Source: a virus
Lineage: Duplodnaviria > Heunggongvirae > Uroviricota > Caudoviricetes
Length of the DNA: 7,330 bases
Strand: one strand, 5' to 3'
Virus record (IMG/VR): IMGVR_UViG_2531839195_000014
The translations under genes and the position numbers were made by a program. This document shows, piece by piece, positions 1-7,330 of this stretch. Below the pieces are notes generated by a model. That model was not told where the DNA came from, made no database searches, and saw nothing but the letters and a program-made list of their open reading frames with translations. Position 1 is the first letter of the stretch. Each line of letters opens with the position of its first letter.

Positions 1-190
1 CGGCGGCCACAGCAGTAAGACTTCCTTCCTGGTATTGCTTACGCCAGAGAAATAACTGGCTGGCTGCTACACCATGTTGCCGGGCAACGAGGGAGACCGT
101 CATCCCCGGTTCAAAGCTCTGCTGAACAATTGCGATCTTTTCCTGTGTGGTACGCCGTCTGCGTTTCTCCGGCCCTAAGACATCAATCAT
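1..190 (-). CDS. insC: IS2 OrfA (InsC) N-terminal 63 codons, partial (C-terminus outside window)
   Basis: Minus-strand translation from ATG (rc of 188-190) gives [63 protein letters not shown], matching the IS2 InsC N-terminus as I remember it. Frame is open to the window edge. Confidence 0.8.
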
Positions 191-281
191 CTGTTCTCCA
201 ATGACTAGTCTAAAAACTAGTATTAAGACTATCACTTAAATAAGTGATACTGGTTGTCTGGAGATTCAGGGGGCCAGTCTA
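1..281 (-). mobile_element. IS2 (IS3 family) left-end fragment; element continues beyond the window start
   Basis: Reverse complement of 251-281 reads TAGACTGGCCCCCTGAATCTCCAGACAACC, which I recognise as the IS2 terminal inverted repeat; the IS2 orfA start lies about 90 bp inside. The outer boundary at 281/282 is set by the terminal TAGACT. Confidence 0.85.
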
Positions 282-737
282 CTCAGCATTATATAGTTCT
301 ACTCTGGCGAGATACGTTGGCATATTCATTTCCTTACTGGTTGTGTGAGAACTTCAGTAAAGATACCACCAAAGCCCGGAAGTGGTGAAATAAAACCGGG
401 CACAACACGAAGGCGCATTTCCGGTATCCATAAAGAGTCGGTCTTGTCTGTGAAATTTAAATGGTGGGAGTGCGCTTCCGGTTGTAAATAACGACATTGC
501 TGTGTGAAGTACCAGTTGGCGGCATCGGTTTAATTGCTGGCTGATGTCCGCCCTTTTTAAAGTGAATTTTGTGATGCGGTGAATGCGGCTATGCGCACGC
601 GGCACAGTTAAAAGTCATGTTAGTCCTTATTGGTTTGGGTGGGAAAGCCAACTGTAATTGTTAACTGGTTAACGTCACCTGGAGGCACCAGGCACCGCAT
701 CAACAAAGTTCACTTCGGTGATGAAAGGAAAGAGAAA

Positions 738-938
738 ATGTTGAATGTAGCTATTGAAAACCAGAACGGGTGGAATTATAGTGCACCTGCACCTCATAAA
801 ACGGGTGCCGGGATTGCTACCCCGACGATGACTACTGCGCATAACCGCGCTCAGGCGGTTTTTTATGCGTCAAGCACAGCCACATTCAGATTATGGTGGG
901 GCGTGCAGGGCAGCCGCAAGGCTGGCCGGTTTCGGTAG
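738..938 (+). CDS. small hypothetical ORF (66 aa), coding status uncertain
   Basis: ATG at 738 preceded by AAGGAAAG; same frame as the listed 630-938 ORF, which uses a TTG start. No recognisable motif. Its 3' end overlaps, in another frame, an open stretch leading into the Rha gene. Confidence 0.25.
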   Translation: MLNVAIENQNGWNYSAPAPHKTGAGIATPTMTTAHNRAQAVFYASSTATFRLWWGVQGSRKAGRFR

Positions 939-1030
939 TCACCGGTTGTAGCAACCCTGTGCGTCTCACCACCCATGAGATTGCTACCTCTGGTGGTGAG
1001 TCATTTAAACTGACTATCGAGGCTGCCATC

Positions 1031-1585
1031 ATGGCTACTATCCTTACCCTTTCTCACCCTGACGCAACCATCGAAAATGGTCGCGCTGTCACTACGTCTG
1101 TTGCGGTTGCGGAGTTCTTCCGGAAAATGCACAAAAACGTTATTCAGAAGATCGAAACTCTCGAATGCTCGCCGGAGTTTAACCGGCTTAATTTTAAGCC
1201 CGTCACCTATACCGACGCCAAAGGCGAAAAACGCCCAATGTACCAAATCACCAAAAACGGCTTCGTTTTCCTGGTGATGGGCTTCACTGGCAAAAAAGCC
1301 GCCGCATTCAAGGAAGCCTACATTGCTGAGTTCGACCGCATGGAGGCCGAACTGCGCCAGAATAACACCCCACCTGCAGACAAGATGATTCCGGGTGATG
1401 GTCGCACTCTGGTTGTTCACTTCGACAAATTCGGCAATGTCGAATTCACCGAAACCGTTCCTGATGGCGCACTGGTCTGTACCCTGGAGACTTTCCGGTT
1501 TTATCTGGAAAAACAGGGATGGACTCTTGTTAACCGGGGCGCAATTAAAAATATGACTGTGGAACAATTACTTTCTTTAAAATAA
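1031..1585 (+). CDS. Rha-family phage regulatory protein (antirepressor-like), 184 aa from ATG 1031
   Basis: Protein MATILTLSHPDATIENGRAVTTSVAVAEFFRKMHKNVIQKIETLECSPEFNRLNFKPVTYTDAKGEKRPMYQITKNGFVFLVMGFTGKKAAAFKEAYIAEFDRMEAELRQ has the hallmark Rha-domain pattern (TTS..VAE.F.K.H.NV, LNF, PMY..TK.GF..LVMG.TGKKA..FK.AYI..F..ME) recalled from memory. GAGG lies 9 nt upstream of ATG 1031. The frame is also open from ATG 893, which has no RBS, so the start is uncertain. Confidence 0.75.
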   Translation: MATILTLSHPDATIENGRAVTTSVAVAEFFRKMHKNVIQKIETLECSPEFNRLNFKPVTYTDAKGEKRPMYQITKNGFVFLVMGFTGKKAAAFKEAYIAEFDRMEAELRQNNTPPADKMIPGDGRTLVVHFDKFGNVEFTETVPDGALVCTLETFRFYLEKQGWTLVNRGAIKNMTVEQLLSLK

Positions 1586-1956
1586 AAATGGAGCTACGGA
1601 TATGAACCCTATGCTTGATTATTGTTTTACCTCTGCACCTCAGCAGACCATAACACACACCGGAATCAAAAATTTGTTATGGATAATCAAAAAAACCTCC
1701 AGTAGAAAGGTGATCCCGATTTAATTCCCTGTGCTTATGGCCTGTGTGACAGACAAGTAAGCCCTGATAAGGCTTACACTGCTGAACTTATTTACATGCA
1801 CGGAACCATGATGAGGAAAAAGAAACGCAAATATTGTAGTGAAATCTGCGCCGAAAAAGACCAGATGGCACACGAACTTTAATTAACTGACTATTCGAAA
1901 CTGAATTTATGCCAGCAATGGCAGGGATTCGCTCAACCTTAATTAAGGAGAAAAAC

Positions 1957-2033
1957 ATGAACACCAATTATGAAGCCACTGTTGCAACTACTGATAACAT
2001 TGTTCACGAGGTTTACCTGGAAGGAAAGCATAT
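1957..2033 (+). pseudogene. 5' fragment (first 25 codons) of an 81-codon gene of unknown function, interrupted by IS600-like copy 1
   Basis: Strong RBS AAGGAG (1945-1950), 6-nt spacer, ATG 1957; reads MNTNYEATVATTDNIVHEVYLEGKH and then runs into the IS terminus at 2034. The in-frame continuation is found on the minus strand at 4194-4023. Confidence 0.6.
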
Positions 2034-2097
2034 TGAGGTAGCCTGAGTTTAACGGACACTCCTTCCTGAAATAGAATGGCATCAGAAGGAGCTAATA

Positions 2098-2385
2098 ATG
2101 AGCAGAAAAACCCAACGTTACTCTAAAGAGTTCAAAGCCGAAGCTGTCAGAACGGTTCTTGAAAATCAACTTTCGATCAGTGAAGGCGCTTCCCGATTAT
2201 CCCTTCCTGAAGGCACTTTAGGACAATGGGTTACCGCCGCCAGAAAAGGGCTCGGTACTCCTGGTTCCCGCACGCTGGCTGAACTGGAATCTGAAATTCT
2301 GCAACTGCGTAAGGCGTTAAATGAAGCTCGCCTTGAGCGCGATATATTAAAAAAGCAACAGCGTATTTTGCACAGGAGTCGCTGA
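2098..2385 (+). CDS. IS600-like OrfA (helix-turn-helix transposase subunit), 95 aa
   Basis: Product MSRKTQRYSKEFKAEAVRTVLENQLSISEGASRLSLPEGTLGQWVTAARKG... then a leucine-zipper-like ILQLRKALNEARLERDILKK; RBS GGAG upstream. I recognise this as IS600 ORF1-like. Confidence 0.85.
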   Translation: MSRKTQRYSKEFKAEAVRTVLENQLSISEGASRLSLPEGTLGQWVTAARKGLGTPGSRTLAELESEILQLRKALNEARLERDILKKQQRILHRSR

Positions 2386-2434
2386 AAAATACGCGTTAAT
2401 CGAACAATGGCGACAACAATTTCCCATTGAAGCG

Positions 2435-3226
2435 ATGTGTCAGGTATTTGGTGTATCCAGGAGCGGTTATTACAACTGGGTACAGCATGAACCCTCAGAC
2501 AGAAAACAAAGTGATGAGCGGCTAAAACTGGAGATTAAGGTGGCACATATCCGCACTCGCGAAACATATGGAACCCGGCGGCTCCAGACGGAGCTGGCAG
2601 AGAATGGCATCATCGTTGGTCGTGACCGACTGGCACGTCTTCGTAAGGAGCTGAGGCTACGCTGTAAGCAGAAACGCAAGTTCAGAGCGACTACGAACCC
2701 GAACCACAATCTGCCAGTTGCGCCAAATCTGCTGAACCAGACGTTCGCTCCTACAGCACCAAATCAGGTCTGGGTGGCGGACCTGACGTATGTTGCTGGC
2801 ATCAAAGATGTTTATACGTGCGAAATTGTCGGCTACGCCATGGGAGAGCGCATGACAAAAGAGCTGACAGGTAAAGCCCTGTTTATGGCGCTCAGGAGCC
2901 AGCGCCCACCTGCCGGGCTAATCCACCACTCTGATCGAGGTTCACAGTACTGCGCATACGATTACCGGGTCATACAGGAGCAGTCTGGTCTGAAAACATC
3001 AATGTCGCGTAAAGGTAACTGTTACGACAACGCTCCGATGGAAAGCTTCTGGGGAACGCTGAAAAATGAGAGCCTGAGCCACTATCGTTTTAATAACCGG
3101 GATGAAGCCATCTCAGTAATACGGGAATACATTGAGATTTTCTACAATCGTCAGCGTCGTCACTCTCGTCTGGGGAATATCTCCCCGGCAGCCTTCAGGG
3201 AAAAATATCATCAGATAGCTGCTTAA
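2435..3226 (+). CDS. IS600-like OrfB (DDE transposase catalytic domain), carrying a 27-bp in-frame deletion
   Basis: ATG-initiated ORF; the frame is open from 2351 and is +1 relative to orfA. Contains WVADLTYV...HHSDRGSQY...NAPMESFWGTLKNE, typical of IS3-family DDE/RNase H fold transposases. Lacks the 9 codons TQEGWLYLA that are present in copies 2 and 3. Confidence 0.8.
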   Translation: MCQVFGVSRSGYYNWVQHEPSDRKQSDERLKLEIKVAHIRTRETYGTRRLQTELAENGIIVGRDRLARLRKELRLRCKQKRKFRATTNPNHNLPVAPNLLNQTFAPTAPNQVWVADLTYVAGIKDVYTCEIVGYAMGERMTKELTGKALFMALRSQRPPAGLIHHSDRGSQYCAYDYRVIQEQSGLKTSMSRKGNCYDNAPMESFWGTLKNESLSHYRFNNRDEAISVIREYIEIFYNRQRRHSRLGNISPAAFREKYHQIAA

Positions 3227-3250
3227 AAAAAGAACAAATGGTAGTGTCCG

Positions 3251-3895
3251 CTATTGCCAGTACACCTCAGCCTTAATTGCATCAGTCAGGCGGAGCAGGG
3301 CGGCATTATCCAGAGTTGTCGGTTCTGCCATGCCGCGTATGGCCAACAGCAGATTCTGGACATAGCTGTTTTCCTGATCCATCTCAAGAGCAGTAATGTG
3401 TTTGCGTTGTTCACGGGTGGCATGATGCAGGTATTTCAGATCCCCGGCAGCATACGTAAAAATGTGCAGAAGACGCTGTGTGAACCGCAAAGTGGCTACA
3501 GAGACTTCGCAATCCTGGCAATCCTCGTGGGCGTCTGCCTGCGCGTTTTCTTCCTGGCCTCCCGCCAGTTCTTTGGTTTCTTGAGCATTATCCTGGTGGT
3601 GAACGTCGTCTGGCGCTGCTCCCGGTTTTAGTTCCCATGTCATGGAGTCTTTGCTGAGTTGATAGCGTTCACTCCAGGTAAAATCGATCTCACCTTCAGG
3701 GGGAAGGTCATTAACGACAGGAAAATTTGTGGCAACAGCTTTAAAATAGTTGCTCAGTTTTTTACCTGACTTAACGAGCAGATAGTCCAGAGTGGTGCTG
3801 GTCGATTCAAAATCGTCGCTTGCCCACAGGACGACGTCAGGTTCACCGGATGATTTTTTCGCTTTCCGTAACAGGAAGAGTGGTTTTGTGCTCAT
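3251..3895 (-). CDS. hypothetical protein, about 208 native codons, 3'-truncated and fused to 5 IS-derived codons plus stop
   Basis: Long minus-strand ORF; ATG at rc 3893-3895 with GAGG 9 nt upstream (the listed ORF starts at TTG 3910). The protein has an N-terminal region, an acidic D/E/Q-rich linker ([32 protein letters not shown]) and a C-terminal region. The frame runs through the IS copy 1 junction at 3269/3270, so the last codons (EVYWQ, stop at 3251-3253) are IS sequence. I do not recognise a family. Confidence 0.5.
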
Positions 3896-3964
3896 TGTTT
3901 TTAACCTCAACTCAGATTAAAATTACTGCGAGTGATGAATAAATGTCCCAGGTTCTTCACTCAG

Positions 3965-3995
3965 GCCTGCACACTGTGCAGGCTTTCTTTTTTTC
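3965..3995 (+). terminator. Rho-independent terminator-like hairpin (plus strand)
   Basis: GCCTGCAC (3965-3972), loop ACT, GTGCAGGC (3976-3983), followed by TTTCTTTTTTTC (3984-3995). On the minus strand the stem is followed by no U-tract, so it is directional. Confidence 0.5.
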
Positions 3996-4022
3996 AGATT
4001 TCACCTTTTAATTTCATTGCAA

Positions 4023-4194
4023 TCAGATTTGCCAGAAATTCGGCTTTTTTTCTGCGGGCAGATTATTTCCGATGTAAACTAGGCACATTTTTGTGGCACC
4101 TTCAACAAGAGTTTTAAAGTTTCCTGATAGACCGTCGATATCAACTACAGTGAATGGGGTTTCTTTATTTTCTGTTTTAATTACGTAGCCAATA
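4023..4194 (-). pseudogene. 3' fragment (last 56 codons plus stop) of the 81-codon gene begun at 1957-2033
   Basis: Minus-strand frame reads (H)IGYVIKTENKETPFTVVDIDGLSGNFKTLVEGATKMCLVYIGNNLPAEKKPNFWQI then stop. Joining 1957-2033 to rc(4194-4023) restores an uninterrupted frame (…AAG CAT ATT GGC TAC…) with a shared TAT triplet at both junctions. The listed ORF 4023-4226 owes its first 11 codons to the IS terminus. Confidence 0.6.
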
Positions 4195-4237
4195 TGAGGT
4201 GTACTGGCAATAGCGGACACTACCATTTGTTCTTTTT

Positions 4238-5055
4238 TTAAGCAGCCATCTGATGATATTTTTCCCTGAAGGCTGCCGGGGAGATATTCCCCAGACGAGA
4301 GTGACGACGCTGACGATTGTAGAAAATCTCAATGTATTCCCGTATTACTGAGATGGCTTCATCCCGGTTATTAAAACGATAGTGGCTCAGGCTCTCATTT
4401 TTCAGCGTTCCCCAGAAGCTTTCCATCGGAGCGTTGTCGTAACAGTTACCTTTACGCGACATTGATGTTTTCAGACCAGACTGCTCCTGTATGACCCGGT
4501 AATCGTATGCGCAGTACTGTGAACCTCGATCAGAGTGGTGGATTAGCCCGGCAGGTGGGCGCTGGCTCCTGAGCGCCTTAAACAGGGCTTTACCTGTCAG
4601 CTCTTTTGTCATGCGCTCTCCCATGGCGTAGCCGACAATTTCGCACGTATAAACATCTTTGATGCCAGCGAGGTACAACCATCCCTCCTGTGTGGCAACA
4701 TACGTCAGGTCCGCCACCCAGACCTGATTTGGTGCTGTAGGAGCGAACGTCTGGTTCAGCAGATTTGGCGCAACTGGCAGATTGTGGTTCGGGTTCGTAG
4801 TCGCTCTGAACTTGCGTTTCTGCTTACAGCGTAGCCTCAGCTCCTTACGAAGACGTGCCAGTCGGTCACGACCAACGATGATGCCATTCTCTGCCAGCTC
4901 CGTCTGGAGCCGCCGGGTTCCATATGTTTCGCGAGTGCGGATATGTGCCACCTTAATCTCCAGTTTTAGCCGCTCATCACTTGTTTTCTGTCTGAGGGTT
5001 CATGCTGTACCCAGTTGTAATAACCGCTCCTGGATACACCAAATACCTGACACAT
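4238..5055 (-). pseudogene. IS600-like orfB, copy 2, frameshifted by a 1-bp deletion
   Basis: Copy 2 has TT at 4981-4982 where copies 1 and 3 have TTT (sense strand AAA to AA). Sense reading becomes ...RKQVMSG-stop shortly after the orfB start; the downstream catalytic region (4238-4951) is intact but out of frame. Confidence 0.8.
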
Positions 5056-5104
5056 CGCTTCAATGGGAAATTGTTGTCGCCATTGTTCGATTAACGCGTA
5101 TTTT

Positions 5105-5392
5105 TCAGCGACTCCTGTGCAAAATACGCTGTTGCTTTTTTAATATATCGCGCTCAAGGCGAGCTTCATTTAACGCCTTACGCAGTTGCAGAATTTCAGA
5201 TTCCAGTTCAGCCACCGTGCGGGAACCAGGAGTACCGAGCCCTTTTCTGGCGGCGGTAACCCATTGTCCTAAAGTGCCTTCAGGAAGGGATAATCGGGAA
5301 GCGCCTTCACTGATCGAAAGTTGATTTTCAAGAACCGTTCTGACAGCTTCGGCTTTGAACTCTTTAGAGTAACGTTGGGTTTTTCTGCTCAT
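5105..5392 (-). CDS. IS600-like OrfA, copy 2 (95 aa)
   Basis: Identical to copy 1 OrfA except L60V (…GSRTVAELE…). Confidence 0.85.
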   Translation of the reverse strand: MSRKTQRYSKEFKAEAVRTVLENQLSISEGASRLSLPEGTLGQWVTAARKGLGTPGSRTVAELESEILQLRKALNEARLERDILKKQQRILHRSR

Positions 5393-5456
5393 TATTAGCT
5401 CCTTCTGATGCCATTCTATTTCAGGAAGGAGTGTCCGTTAAACTCAGGCTACCTCA

Positions 5457-6228
5457 ATTCCCCAGACGAGAGTGACGACGCTGACGATTGTAGAAAATCT
5501 CAATGTATTCCCGTATTACTGAGATGGCTTCATCCCGGTTATTAAAACGATAGTGGCTCAGGCTCTCATTTTTCAGCGTTCCCCAGAAGCTTTCCATCGG
5601 AGCGTTGTCGTAACAGTTACCTTTACGCGACATTGATGTTTTCAGACCAGACTGCTCCTGTATGACCCGGTAATCGTATGCGCAGTACTGTGAACCTCGA
5701 TCAGAGTGGTGGATTAGCCCGGCAGGTGGGCGCTGGCTCCTGAGCGCCATAAACAGGGCTTTACCTGTCAGCTCTTTTGTCATGCGCTCTCCCATGGCGT
5801 AGCCGACAATTTCGCACGTATAAACATCTTTGATGCCAGCGAGGTACAACCATCCCTCCTGTGTGGCAACATACGTCAGGTCCGCCACCCAGACCTGATT
5901 TGGTGCTGTAGGAGCGAACGTCTGGTTCAGCAGATTTGGCGCAACTGGCAGATTGTGTGTTCGGGTTCGTAGTCGCTCTGAACTTGCGTTTCTGCTTACA
6001 GCGTAGCCTCAGCTCCTTACGAAGACGTGCCAGTCGGTCACGACCAACGATGATGCCATTCTCTGCCAGCTCCGTCTGGAGCCGCCGGGTTCCATATGTT
6101 TCGCGAGTGCGGATATGTGCCACCTTAATCTCCAGTTTTAACCGCTCATCACTTTGTTTTCTGTCTGAGGGTTCATGCTGTACCCAGTTGTAATAACCGC
6201 TCCTGGATACACCAAATACCTGACACAT
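5457..6228 (-). pseudogene. IS600-like orfB, copy 3, 1-bp insertion frameshift and 3' truncation
   Basis: Extra T at 5958 (GATTGTGTGTTCGGG versus GATTGTGGTTCGGG in copy 2) shifts the frame after ...RATTNPN. The 3' end is cut at 5457, and the listed ORF 5454-5888 terminates in copy 2 IRL sequence. Confidence 0.8.
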
Positions 6229-6277
6229 CGCTTCAATGGGAAATTGTTGTCGCCATTGTTCGATTAACGCGTATTTT

Positions 6278-6565
6278 TCAGCGACTCCTGTGCAAAATAC
6301 GCTGTTGCTTTTTTAATATATCGCGCTCAAGGCGAGCTTCATTTAACGCCTTACGCAGTTGCAGAATTTCAGATTCCAGTTCAGCCACCGTGCGGGAACC
6401 AGGAGTACCGAGCCCTTTTCTGGCGGCGGTAACCCATTGTCCTAAAGTGCCTTCAGGAAGGGATAATCGGGAAGCGCCTTCACTGATCGAAAGTTGATTT
6501 TCAAGAACCGTTCTGACAGCTTCGGCTTTGAACTCTTTAGAGTAACGTTGGGTTTTTCTGCTCAT
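6278..6565 (-). CDS. IS600-like OrfA, copy 3 (95 aa)
   Basis: Protein identical to copy 2 OrfA. Confidence 0.85.
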   Translation of the reverse strand: MSRKTQRYSKEFKAEAVRTVLENQLSISEGASRLSLPEGTLGQWVTAARKGLGTPGSRTVAELESEILQLRKALNEARLERDILKKQQRILHRSR

Positions 6566-6869
6566 TATTAGCTCCTTCTGATGCCATTTTATTTCAGGAA
6601 GGAGTGTCCGTTAAACTCAGGCTACCTCACATGTCTCTGGCGCAATGCCCGGGCTTTTTATTCGCACATCGTGAGGAATGCACCGTGGAAATTAAAAAAT
6701 CATTAATCCCCGTTATACCGAAAGTGGCGCAGTAGACTGTGACGTTTTTTTTGACGACAGGGACCAGGCAGTCCCCTACACAGCCACCGCTGATGATGTC
6801 GCACCGACGGGTCAGCGAATCTGGCAGGAACTGCAAAGTGGCAAATGGGGTGAGATAGCCCCATTCACT

Positions 6870-7247
6870 GTGACACCAGAAATGCTGGAAGCGGCCAGAG
6901 AGGCCAGACGTCAGGAAATTGAAGCATGGCGCACAGAACAGGAGGCGAAGCCGTTCACGTTTGAATGGAACGGTCGTATCTGGAATGCTGGCCCCAACTC
7001 ACTGGGCCGCCTTTATCCGGTGGTAATGGCTGCGAAATCCGACATTGTACGGGACGTGATGACGTGGGGTGATGCCGATAATCAGCAGGTGAAACTGTCG
7101 ATGCCGGAACTGGAAGAACTGGCGGCAGCAATGGTGCAGGCGCAGGTCGATCGCAACGATGAGATTTATCGCCGTCAGCGTGAAATGAAAGAGGAGCTGA
7201 GCGGTCTGGATGATTTGGCTTCAATTCGGGCGTTTGACGTTGAGTAA
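6870..7247 (+). CDS. phage tail-associated DUF4376-like protein (tail-fibre-assembly-like region); 5' end disrupted or uncertain
   Basis: Product …EMLEAAREARRQEIEAWRTEQEA…MTWGDADNQQVKLSMPELEELAAAMVQAQVDRNDEIYRRQREMKEELSGLDDLASIRAFDVE resembles, from memory, the DUF4376 family found beside prophage tail-fibre genes. The frame is open upstream to 6696 with coding-like sequence but no start codon or RBS before GTG 6870 / ATG 6882. The stop overlaps the next start (TAATG). Confidence 0.45.
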   Translation: MTPEMLEAAREARRQEIEAWRTEQEAKPFTFEWNGRIWNAGPNSLGRLYPVVMAAKSDIVRDVMTWGDADNQQVKLSMPELEELAAAMVQAQVDRNDEIYRRQREMKEELSGLDDLASIRAFDVE

Positions 7248-7330
7248 TGAATAAGCCGCAACTGGCGGAATCACAGAAGACCGCTTTGCTTACCGAAGCG
7301 GAGTCTGTCATCCGGCCGCCGGGGCGTGCT
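7247..7330 (+). CDS. hypothetical protein, N-terminal 28 codons, partial (continues beyond the window)
   Basis: ATG 7247 overlaps the upstream stop codon (TAATG), suggesting translational coupling; reads MNKPQLAESQKTALLTEAESVIRPPGRA to the window edge. Not in the ORF track because of the window end. Confidence 0.3.
   Translation, partial: MNKPQLAESQKTALLTEAESVIRPPGRA

Follow-up and report, generated by a model that had tools for sequence, protein, structure and literature searches.

Homopolymer errors of the 454/Ion Torrent type, and those of early nanopore reads, are confined to runs, rise steeply with run length, are mostly deletions, occur sporadically among relatives, and fall in non-coding sequence as well as in genes; in draft bacterial genomes they give rise to artificial frameshifts. 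Bases dropped from runs and mis-joined repeat reads are typical of flow-based (pyrosequencing-type) reads and of collapsed multi-copy repeats. Insertion sequences (IS) of the IS3 family, including IS911, IS3 and IS150, use a programmed -1 frameshift at the overlap of orfA and orfB, and reductive evolution, through the spread of IS elements and the formation of pseudogenes, is a known feature of Shigella. The 7,330-bp stretch of DNA analysed here (the window) invites comparison with each of these. It is identical over its full length to contig AKMZ01000023.1 (L007) of the Shigella flexneri K-404 draft assembly GCA_000268025.1, and the locus is what remains of a Rac-like prophage, with insertions of an IS2-like element and of IS600.

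Most of the one-base frame breaks in the window resemble homopolymer errors in all of the respects listed above, with the exception of two changes inside IS600 copies, an AAA to AA deletion in copy 2 and an insertion in copy 3, that do not lie in long runs and fit repeat-consensus errors better. The A-run at the orfA/orfB overlap of the IS600 copies is like the frameshift site of the IS3 family; however, the A6G of the window cannot yield an OrfAB fusion by a -1 slip as written. IS insertions, an inversion, a truncated RecE, a nonsense codon in YdaE, a 27-bp deletion and a polymorphic Rha frameshift, all common to independent assemblies, are in keeping with reductive evolution, whereas the bias towards 1-nt deletions is confined, Rha apart, to this contig and its sister drafts. 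An earlier note on this stretch had asked whether the bias reflects real decay or under-called homopolymers. From the comparison of sequences, homopolymer under-calling is the best explanation for most of the sites, and probably the right one.

Run-length dependence and distribution of the one-base differences

The whole analysis compares assembled sequences, with run lengths taken from the assemblies, each in the stretch that it covers. The reference for calling insertions and deletions (indels) was the collinear orthologous locus of the complete S. flexneri NCTC1 genome (LM651928.1, L006), and every homopolymer of the NCTC1 segment was tabulated against its run length in the window. Further loci were those of FDAARGOS_944 and FDAARGOS_943 (both with an intact Rha gene), AWOX, AGRC, AFGV (L010), the BSBX, BSBW and BSCB short contigs, and the Logan assemblies ERR591018 and SRR15328297. 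Drafts of the AF-, AGRC and AKMZ accession series of 2011-12 are referred to as sister drafts.

Between the window and NCTC1 there are eight 1-nt deletions, one 1-nt insertion and six substitutions (Table 1), with all six substitutions inside IS600 copies and none in ~3.66 kb of unique sequence. The segment has 15 runs of at least six bases, 7 of them shorter by a base in the window and none longer, whereas none of the 103 runs of 4-5 bases has changed (Fisher p = 1.2e-7); seven of the eight deletions fall in these long runs. The excess of deletions (8 against 1 insertion) gives p = 0.039 in a sign test. This directional, run-associated bias exceeds chance and is real in the sequence as written. 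One of the deleted bases lies in an intergenic T-run, which argues that selection on genes is not involved.

The earlier note had remarked that the frame breaks are mostly 1-nt deletions and that only the orfB of the third IS copy carries an insertion. Both observations hold, the bias being stronger than the note could tell and the single 1-nt insertion lying at 5958. Five sites had been proposed as lacking a base; the AAA to AA change in copy 2 orfB and the A-run before the DUF4376 gene are indeed among the deletions, two others had been placed at the wrong run (see below), and the intergenic T-run is a further site that had been missed.

NCTC1, AWOX, the short-contig assemblies and the Logan assemblies lack seven of the eight deletions at every such site that they cover, and the shortened DUF4376 run recurs in sister drafts only. 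Recurrence in independent assemblies was thus found for the Rha T6 and for none of the seven other 1-nt deletions, nor for the copy 3 insertion. Over 31.7 kb, the sister drafts lack a single base at 26 places relative to NCTC1 and have 7 insertions; the short-contig and Logan assemblies, over 15.4 kb, have the common Rha T6 as their sole indel. A homopolymeric tract length that is consistent within a clade has been taken as real, and a sporadic one as an error (PMC4746626). By this criterion the deletions other than the Rha T6 would be errors, because they are sporadic.

The DUF4376 gene illustrates this distribution. As had been supposed, the window run is one base short of the A7 of NCTC1, and the insertion of one A yields a 205-aa product with the sequence of the NCTC1 protein. 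That intact protein is present in 597 contigs and the 125-aa fragment in only 7, all of the sister series, while partial products from many other S. flexneri assemblies pass the A-run in frame (P0031). Within the sister drafts, the A-run and a T-run ~50 nt downstream show all four combined states (A7T8, A6T8, A6T7 and A7T7), a pattern that simple descent cannot explain. The ipaH gene (LRR/NEL) downstream of DUF4376 encodes 603 aa in NCTC1 and is found as draft-specific fragments of 116+176, 113+291 and 161+92 aa (L008, L018-L021), with breakpoints that are further evidence of assembly-specific indels. Breakpoints in IS600 likewise vary between the drafts.

The A-run of YdaE has eight bases in all ten other S. 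flexneri loci compared, including NCTC1, AWOX and all loci with the Rha T6, and seven in the window only. The 40-aa product of the frameshifted run was found elsewhere only in K-304, 2930-71 and one further draft of the EJL series. The missing base had been assigned to the CCC at 1715-1717, where the window does not differ from its intact homologue; this candidate was rejected, and the base is missing instead from the A-run. A second break is present in the form of a CAG to TAG nonsense codon, common to nine other loci, among them NCTC1, AWOX and the short-contig drafts. Restoring one base to the window therefore extends the reading frame to only 34 aa, and the 93-aa protein requires that both changes be undone. 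YdaE is a real pseudogene, in which the nonsense codon is shared and the A8 to A7 change is probably an error. A further 40-aa YdaE product, which has this frameshifted tail but differs by N to K, is encoded by a Logan contig of 2484 bp (P0018), and the A/C-run may have been shortened independently in another lineage or data set. The intergenic run is T6 in five other loci (L003, L005, L006, L008 and L009), with T5 private to the window.

The Rha gene is the case in which a one-base deletion recurs. Intact Rha is a single 849-nt coding sequence (CDS) in FDAARGOS_944 and FDAARGOS_943, starting at the window's ATG at 738, and one T added to the window gives 282 aa identical to the intact protein of L009. 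The suggestion that the open reading frame (ORF) at 738 fuses to the Rha frame was therefore correct; the site suggested for it, a GGGG within the 893-938 overlap, was not, as the break lies at 859-864 and the GGGG at 897-900, rejected as a candidate, is the same in the intact homologue. The T6 state is seen in AFGV (L010), in three 2-kb contigs (BSBX, BSBW and BSCB), one of which occurs in at least 20 samples, and in the two Logan assemblies (L010 and L012-L016 in all), none of which has any other window deletion in the stretch covered. The 230-aa Rha fragment was traced to eight contigs, of which two begin downstream of the T-run, so that the state of the run is readable only in the others; the intact 282-aa protein is present in at least 1000 contigs. 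Since it recurs in independent short-contig and Logan assemblies, the Rha T6 is probably a real minority allele of S. flexneri, though in K-404 it is possibly an error. The 230-aa fragment keeps both Pfam domains, Phage_ASH and Phage_pRha, so the break may not abolish function.

Table 1. Features of the window and one-base differences from the NCTC1 locus
Feature	Position	Strand	Remarks
IS3-family element end	1..281	-	contig start inside element; homology to uninterrupted E. coli locus from 282
Rha-family phage regulator gene	738..1585	+	66-aa and 230-aa ORFs, split at 859-864
Deletion, Rha	859-864		T6 (T7 in NCTC1)
YdaE-family pseudogene	1602..1883	+	nonsense codon at 1703-1705; A8 to A7 at 1689-1695
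Deletion, YdaE	1689-1695		A7 (A8 in NCTC1)
IS600 copy 1	2034..3269	+	slippery run 2349-2354; orfB deletion junction 2795/2796
Deletion, IS600 copy 1 slippery run	2349-2354		A6 (A7 in NCTC1)
RecE (Exonuc_VIII) remnant	3251..3895	-	Pfam PF06630; between inverted IS600 copies
Intergenic T-run	3898..3902	.	T5 in window
Deletion, intergenic	3898-3902		T5 (T6 in NCTC1)
IS600 copy 2, full length	4195..5456	-	slippery run 5136-5141 (T6 on + strand); orfB AAA to AA at 4981-4982
Deletion, IS600 copy 2 orfB	4981-4982		TT (TTT in NCTC1)
Deletion, IS600 copy 2 slippery run	5136-5141		T6 (T7 in NCTC1)
IS600 copy 3, partial, IS positions 1-1173	5457..6629	-	slippery run 6309-6314 (T6); extra base at 5958
Insertion, IS600 copy 3 orfB	5958		one extra base relative to NCTC1
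Deletion, IS600 copy 3 slippery run	6309-6314		T6 (T7 in NCTC1)
DUF4376 gene	6631..7247	+	split by A7 to A6 at 6694-6699
Deletion, DUF4376	6694-6699		A6 (A7 in NCTC1)

The IS600 copies and their slippery run

The three IS copies are 99.4-99.5% identical to the IS600 of pCP301 and of many Shigella and E. coli records, and 99.6-99.7% identical to the reference IS600 copy of NCTC1. IS600 is 1264 bp long, with the ends TGAGG...CCTCA, and copies 1, 2 and 3 align to IS positions 1-1264, 1-1264 and 1-1173, respectively. Its orfA (HTH_Tnp_1) is followed by orfB (rve), and the Pfam families PF01527, PF13276, PF00665 and PF13683 are found on the genes of the contig.

In the reference IS600 the overlap reads TTA AAA AAA GCA (A7G), orfA encodes 100 aa and orfB follows in the -1 frame; a -1 slip, when simulated, produces an OrfAB of 385 aa. 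All three window copies have A6G, in which orfA stops after 95 aa and orfB lies in the +1 frame, not in the -1 frame joined by a slippery run that characterizes IS600. A -1 slip on this sequence reaches only the normal OrfA C-terminus and its stop codon, and fusing orfA to orfB would take one base fewer or two more. The shared A-run, from its sequence and position, is the programmed -1 ribosomal frameshift site of IS600, one A short; the reading of it as a simply intact site was rejected, given the A7G of the reference. The comparison with a reference IS600 that the earlier note had called for confirms the missing base, and corrects its expectation that one base would heal a long ORF: adding an A gives instead the native two-ORF recoding layout, a 100-aa orfA with orfB in the -1 frame. 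We attribute the altered layout to a probable error of base calling and not to the copies being another element.

NCTC1, AGRC, AWOX and AFGV all have A7 in the orthologous copies at these insertion sites. Elsewhere, the 95-aa OrfA that marks the A6 run is present in 236 blocks of the protein collection. Many assemblies with multiple A6 copies are also one base short in a second A7 run, at IS position 1220, which points to error-prone assemblies. Among complete E. coli genomes, 69-nt and 70-nt queries found a handful of IS600 copies of A6 length against several hundred of A7 length, a count to be read qualitatively since a nearby single-nucleotide polymorphism blurs the identity bands. The Prokaryotic Genome Annotation Pipeline (PGAP) labels the reference A7 copies 'programmed frameshift' with a joined CDS of 1157 nt, and gives A6 copies (L047 and L048, described below) the same label with a joined CDS of 1156 nt. 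PGAP silently absorbs a 1-nt change of the slippery run by a shift of the other sign.

Each copy has a further lesion of its own. In copy 1, a 27-bp in-frame deletion in orfB removes TQEGWLYLA just after the ADLTY motif. The resulting 263-aa product is found in 11 contigs, including complete genomes, and the deletion is common to NCTC1, AGRC, AWOX and strain 2002017; it is real and probably inactivates the transposase. Copy 1 has this locus-specific deletion and an A at IS position 1212 in common with its orthologues. At IS position 323 (window 2355), however, it has the G of generic IS600 (A6G), whereas the orthologues (L006 at 5921, L009 at 2521, and L010) have T (A7T). The IS next to DUF4376 in 4343-70, 2930-71 and K-671 also has the T variant. 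This pattern suggests either exchange between the two inverted copies or contamination of the consensus; a G at this position is what a consensus fed by the reads of many IS600 copies would be expected to show.

The orfB changes of copies 2 and 3, both of which had been correctly recognized, are absent from every other copy compared, and the 237-aa (copy 2) and 155-aa (copy 3) products occur in this contig only. In NCTC1, AGRC and AWOX there is a single IS600 between the RecE remnant and DUF4376, onto which window positions 1-5456 and 5457-7330 both map. At the 5456/5457 junction the left inverted repeat (IRL) end of copy 2 abuts an internal orfB position (IS 1173) of copy 3, and no second half of an interrupted copy lies beyond. 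A search of the GTDB species representatives, 72,556 plasmids and 5,426 complete E. coli genomes found no contiguous copy of the junction, and a real insertion of one IS into another was rejected as its origin. Copy 3 is probably a spurious partial duplication, created by a mis-join of repeat reads, in which case its two frame breaks may match no real DNA. A different lesion was observed in the draft of 4343-70 (AFHC, L020), where a deletion of ~25 nt in an IS600 orfB, at locus positions ~496-498, accompanies run-length changes.

Explanations for the one-base deletions

In the explanation that we favour, the true background is a Rac-like prophage remnant in K-404 that is really degraded, one base would have been lost systematically, in base calling or assembly, from about half of the homopolymers of at least six bases, and reads from the IS600 repeats were probably mis-joined into a spurious partial tandem copy. 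Probable artefacts are the changes in the YdaE A-run, the intergenic T5, DUF4376, the three IS600 slippery runs and copy 2 orfB, and the extra base of copy 3. From the differences, their run-length dependence and their distribution among assemblies, we infer sequencing chemistry as the cause. The draft series was presumably pyrosequenced; a search of the literature for the platform of K-404 and the sister drafts returned strain tables only. Of the two alternatives raised at the outset, under-calling stands for most sites, which are private, run-length-dependent, in part non-coding and homoplasious, and real decay stands, among the indels, for the Rha T6 only. Real decay also holds for lesions other than 1-nt indels.

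Several points weigh against under-calling. The case is built on assembled sequences and on a presumed platform for K-404. True replication slippage is also length-dependent and can favour deletions. The Rha T6 shows that at least one of the listed sites is truly polymorphic, and the 40-aa YdaE and 125-aa DUF4376 products recur in several strains and could in principle mark a clade. In addition, A6 copies of IS600 are present, one in each, in the good-looking assemblies of FDAARGOS_944 (L047, 1831891-1833046) and RM12581 (L048, 2373470-2374625). The A7 to A6 change thus occurs, or at least is recorded, outside the draft series, and in IS600 it may also be natural.

The alternative that survives best, though it is improbable, leans further towards decay: the A6 of DUF4376 and the A7 of YdaE would mark a sub-lineage seen only in the 2011-12 drafts, and only the changes internal to IS600 would be artefacts. 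The seven contigs with the 125-aa DUF4376 product come from seven strains, and the 40-aa YdaE product is found in three further strains. Assembly is also hardest within IS elements, and at position 323 copy 1 has the base of generic IS600 in place of that of its orthologues. However, the four-state pattern at DUF4376 is incompatible with simple descent, the gene is read through in frame in other S. flexneri assemblies (P0031) and its protein is intact in 597 contigs, and the intergenic T5 is private to the window.

Less probable again is that all of the 1-nt deletions are real, K-404 or the sister set having passed through a mismatch-repair-deficient (mutator) phase in which the genes were truly pseudogenised. 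Length-dependent indels restricted to runs are also the established spectrum of mismatch-repair deficiency, and both the real polymorphism of the Rha T6 and the A6 copies of IS600 in other genomes are in accord with it. However, mutators also raise the rate of transitions, and the unique sequence has four indels beside no substitutions in its ~3.66 kb. A mutator state would have to be assumed for several different strains of the one draft series, with a four-state pattern at two runs ~50 nt apart. The assemblies from other sources with the Rha T6 (L010, L012-L016) are without the other deletions in the stretch that they cover. Three independent A7 to A6 changes would be needed as well, the orthologous IS600 copies being A7.

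Least likely is that A6G is a functional recoding variant spread by active elements through +1 or -2 ribosomal frameshifting or through transcriptional slippage that adds an A, which would make the A6 run in the three copies and in other genomes biology and not error: A AAA AAG is a canonical slippery heptamer, in phase in the window orfA, the 95-aa OrfA of the 236 blocks often lies beside an intact 272-aa orfB with several copies per genome, and A6 copies have the PGAP 'programmed frameshift' label with its 1156-nt CDS, but a -1 slip reaches only the OrfA C-terminus and stop with orfB in the +1 frame, many multi-copy A6 assemblies are also short at the position 1220 run, the orthologous copies at the window's insertion sites are A7, and PGAP assigns its label by homology, which is no evidence of recoding.

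If homopolymer under-calling is the cause, artificial frameshifts would inflate any pseudogene count, and any 'reductive evolution' statistic, that is based on this Shigella draft and its sister drafts. Other strains have four or five of the contig's broken genes in intact or canonical form, and the pseudogene calls of the contig and its sister drafts are not to be taken at face value. Real and artificial frameshifts can be told apart without reads by tabulating run lengths against a finished relative and looking up the exact products across independent assemblies. No new biology is involved, as the -1 site of IS600, IS-driven prophage decay and the polymorphic Rha frameshift are already known.

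Real decay and other features of the locus

Beneath the one-base changes, the locus has lesions that are real by their presence in independent assemblies. These are the IS insertions, the RecE inversion, the truncated RecE, the nonsense codon of YdaE, the 27-bp deletion of copy 1 and, in part of the species, the Rha T6. The segment with the RecE remnant is inverted relative to the E. coli arrangement, such that window positions 3270-4196 match FDAARGOS_944 (L003, 5668-4741) on the opposite strand, and it is bounded by the inverted IS600 copies 1 and 2. This orientation fits an inversion mediated by IS600, and the inversion is real since NCTC1 has it too. IS600 would be expected to leave a short (3-bp) target-site duplication. 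Once the inversion is reversed, the left flank of copy 1 and the flank of copy 2 on the side of its right inverted repeat (IRR) both extend over the same 2-3 bp of the uninterrupted FDAARGOS_944 sequence, GCATATTGGCTACG, an overlap whose length is ambiguous because the terminal T is common to both.

At the other end of the locus, the contig begins inside an IS3-family element, presumably IS2. A 63-aa HTH_Tnp_1 product is called here at 1-190, and NCTC1 has the full IS ORF pair of 121 aa and 301 aa at this place.

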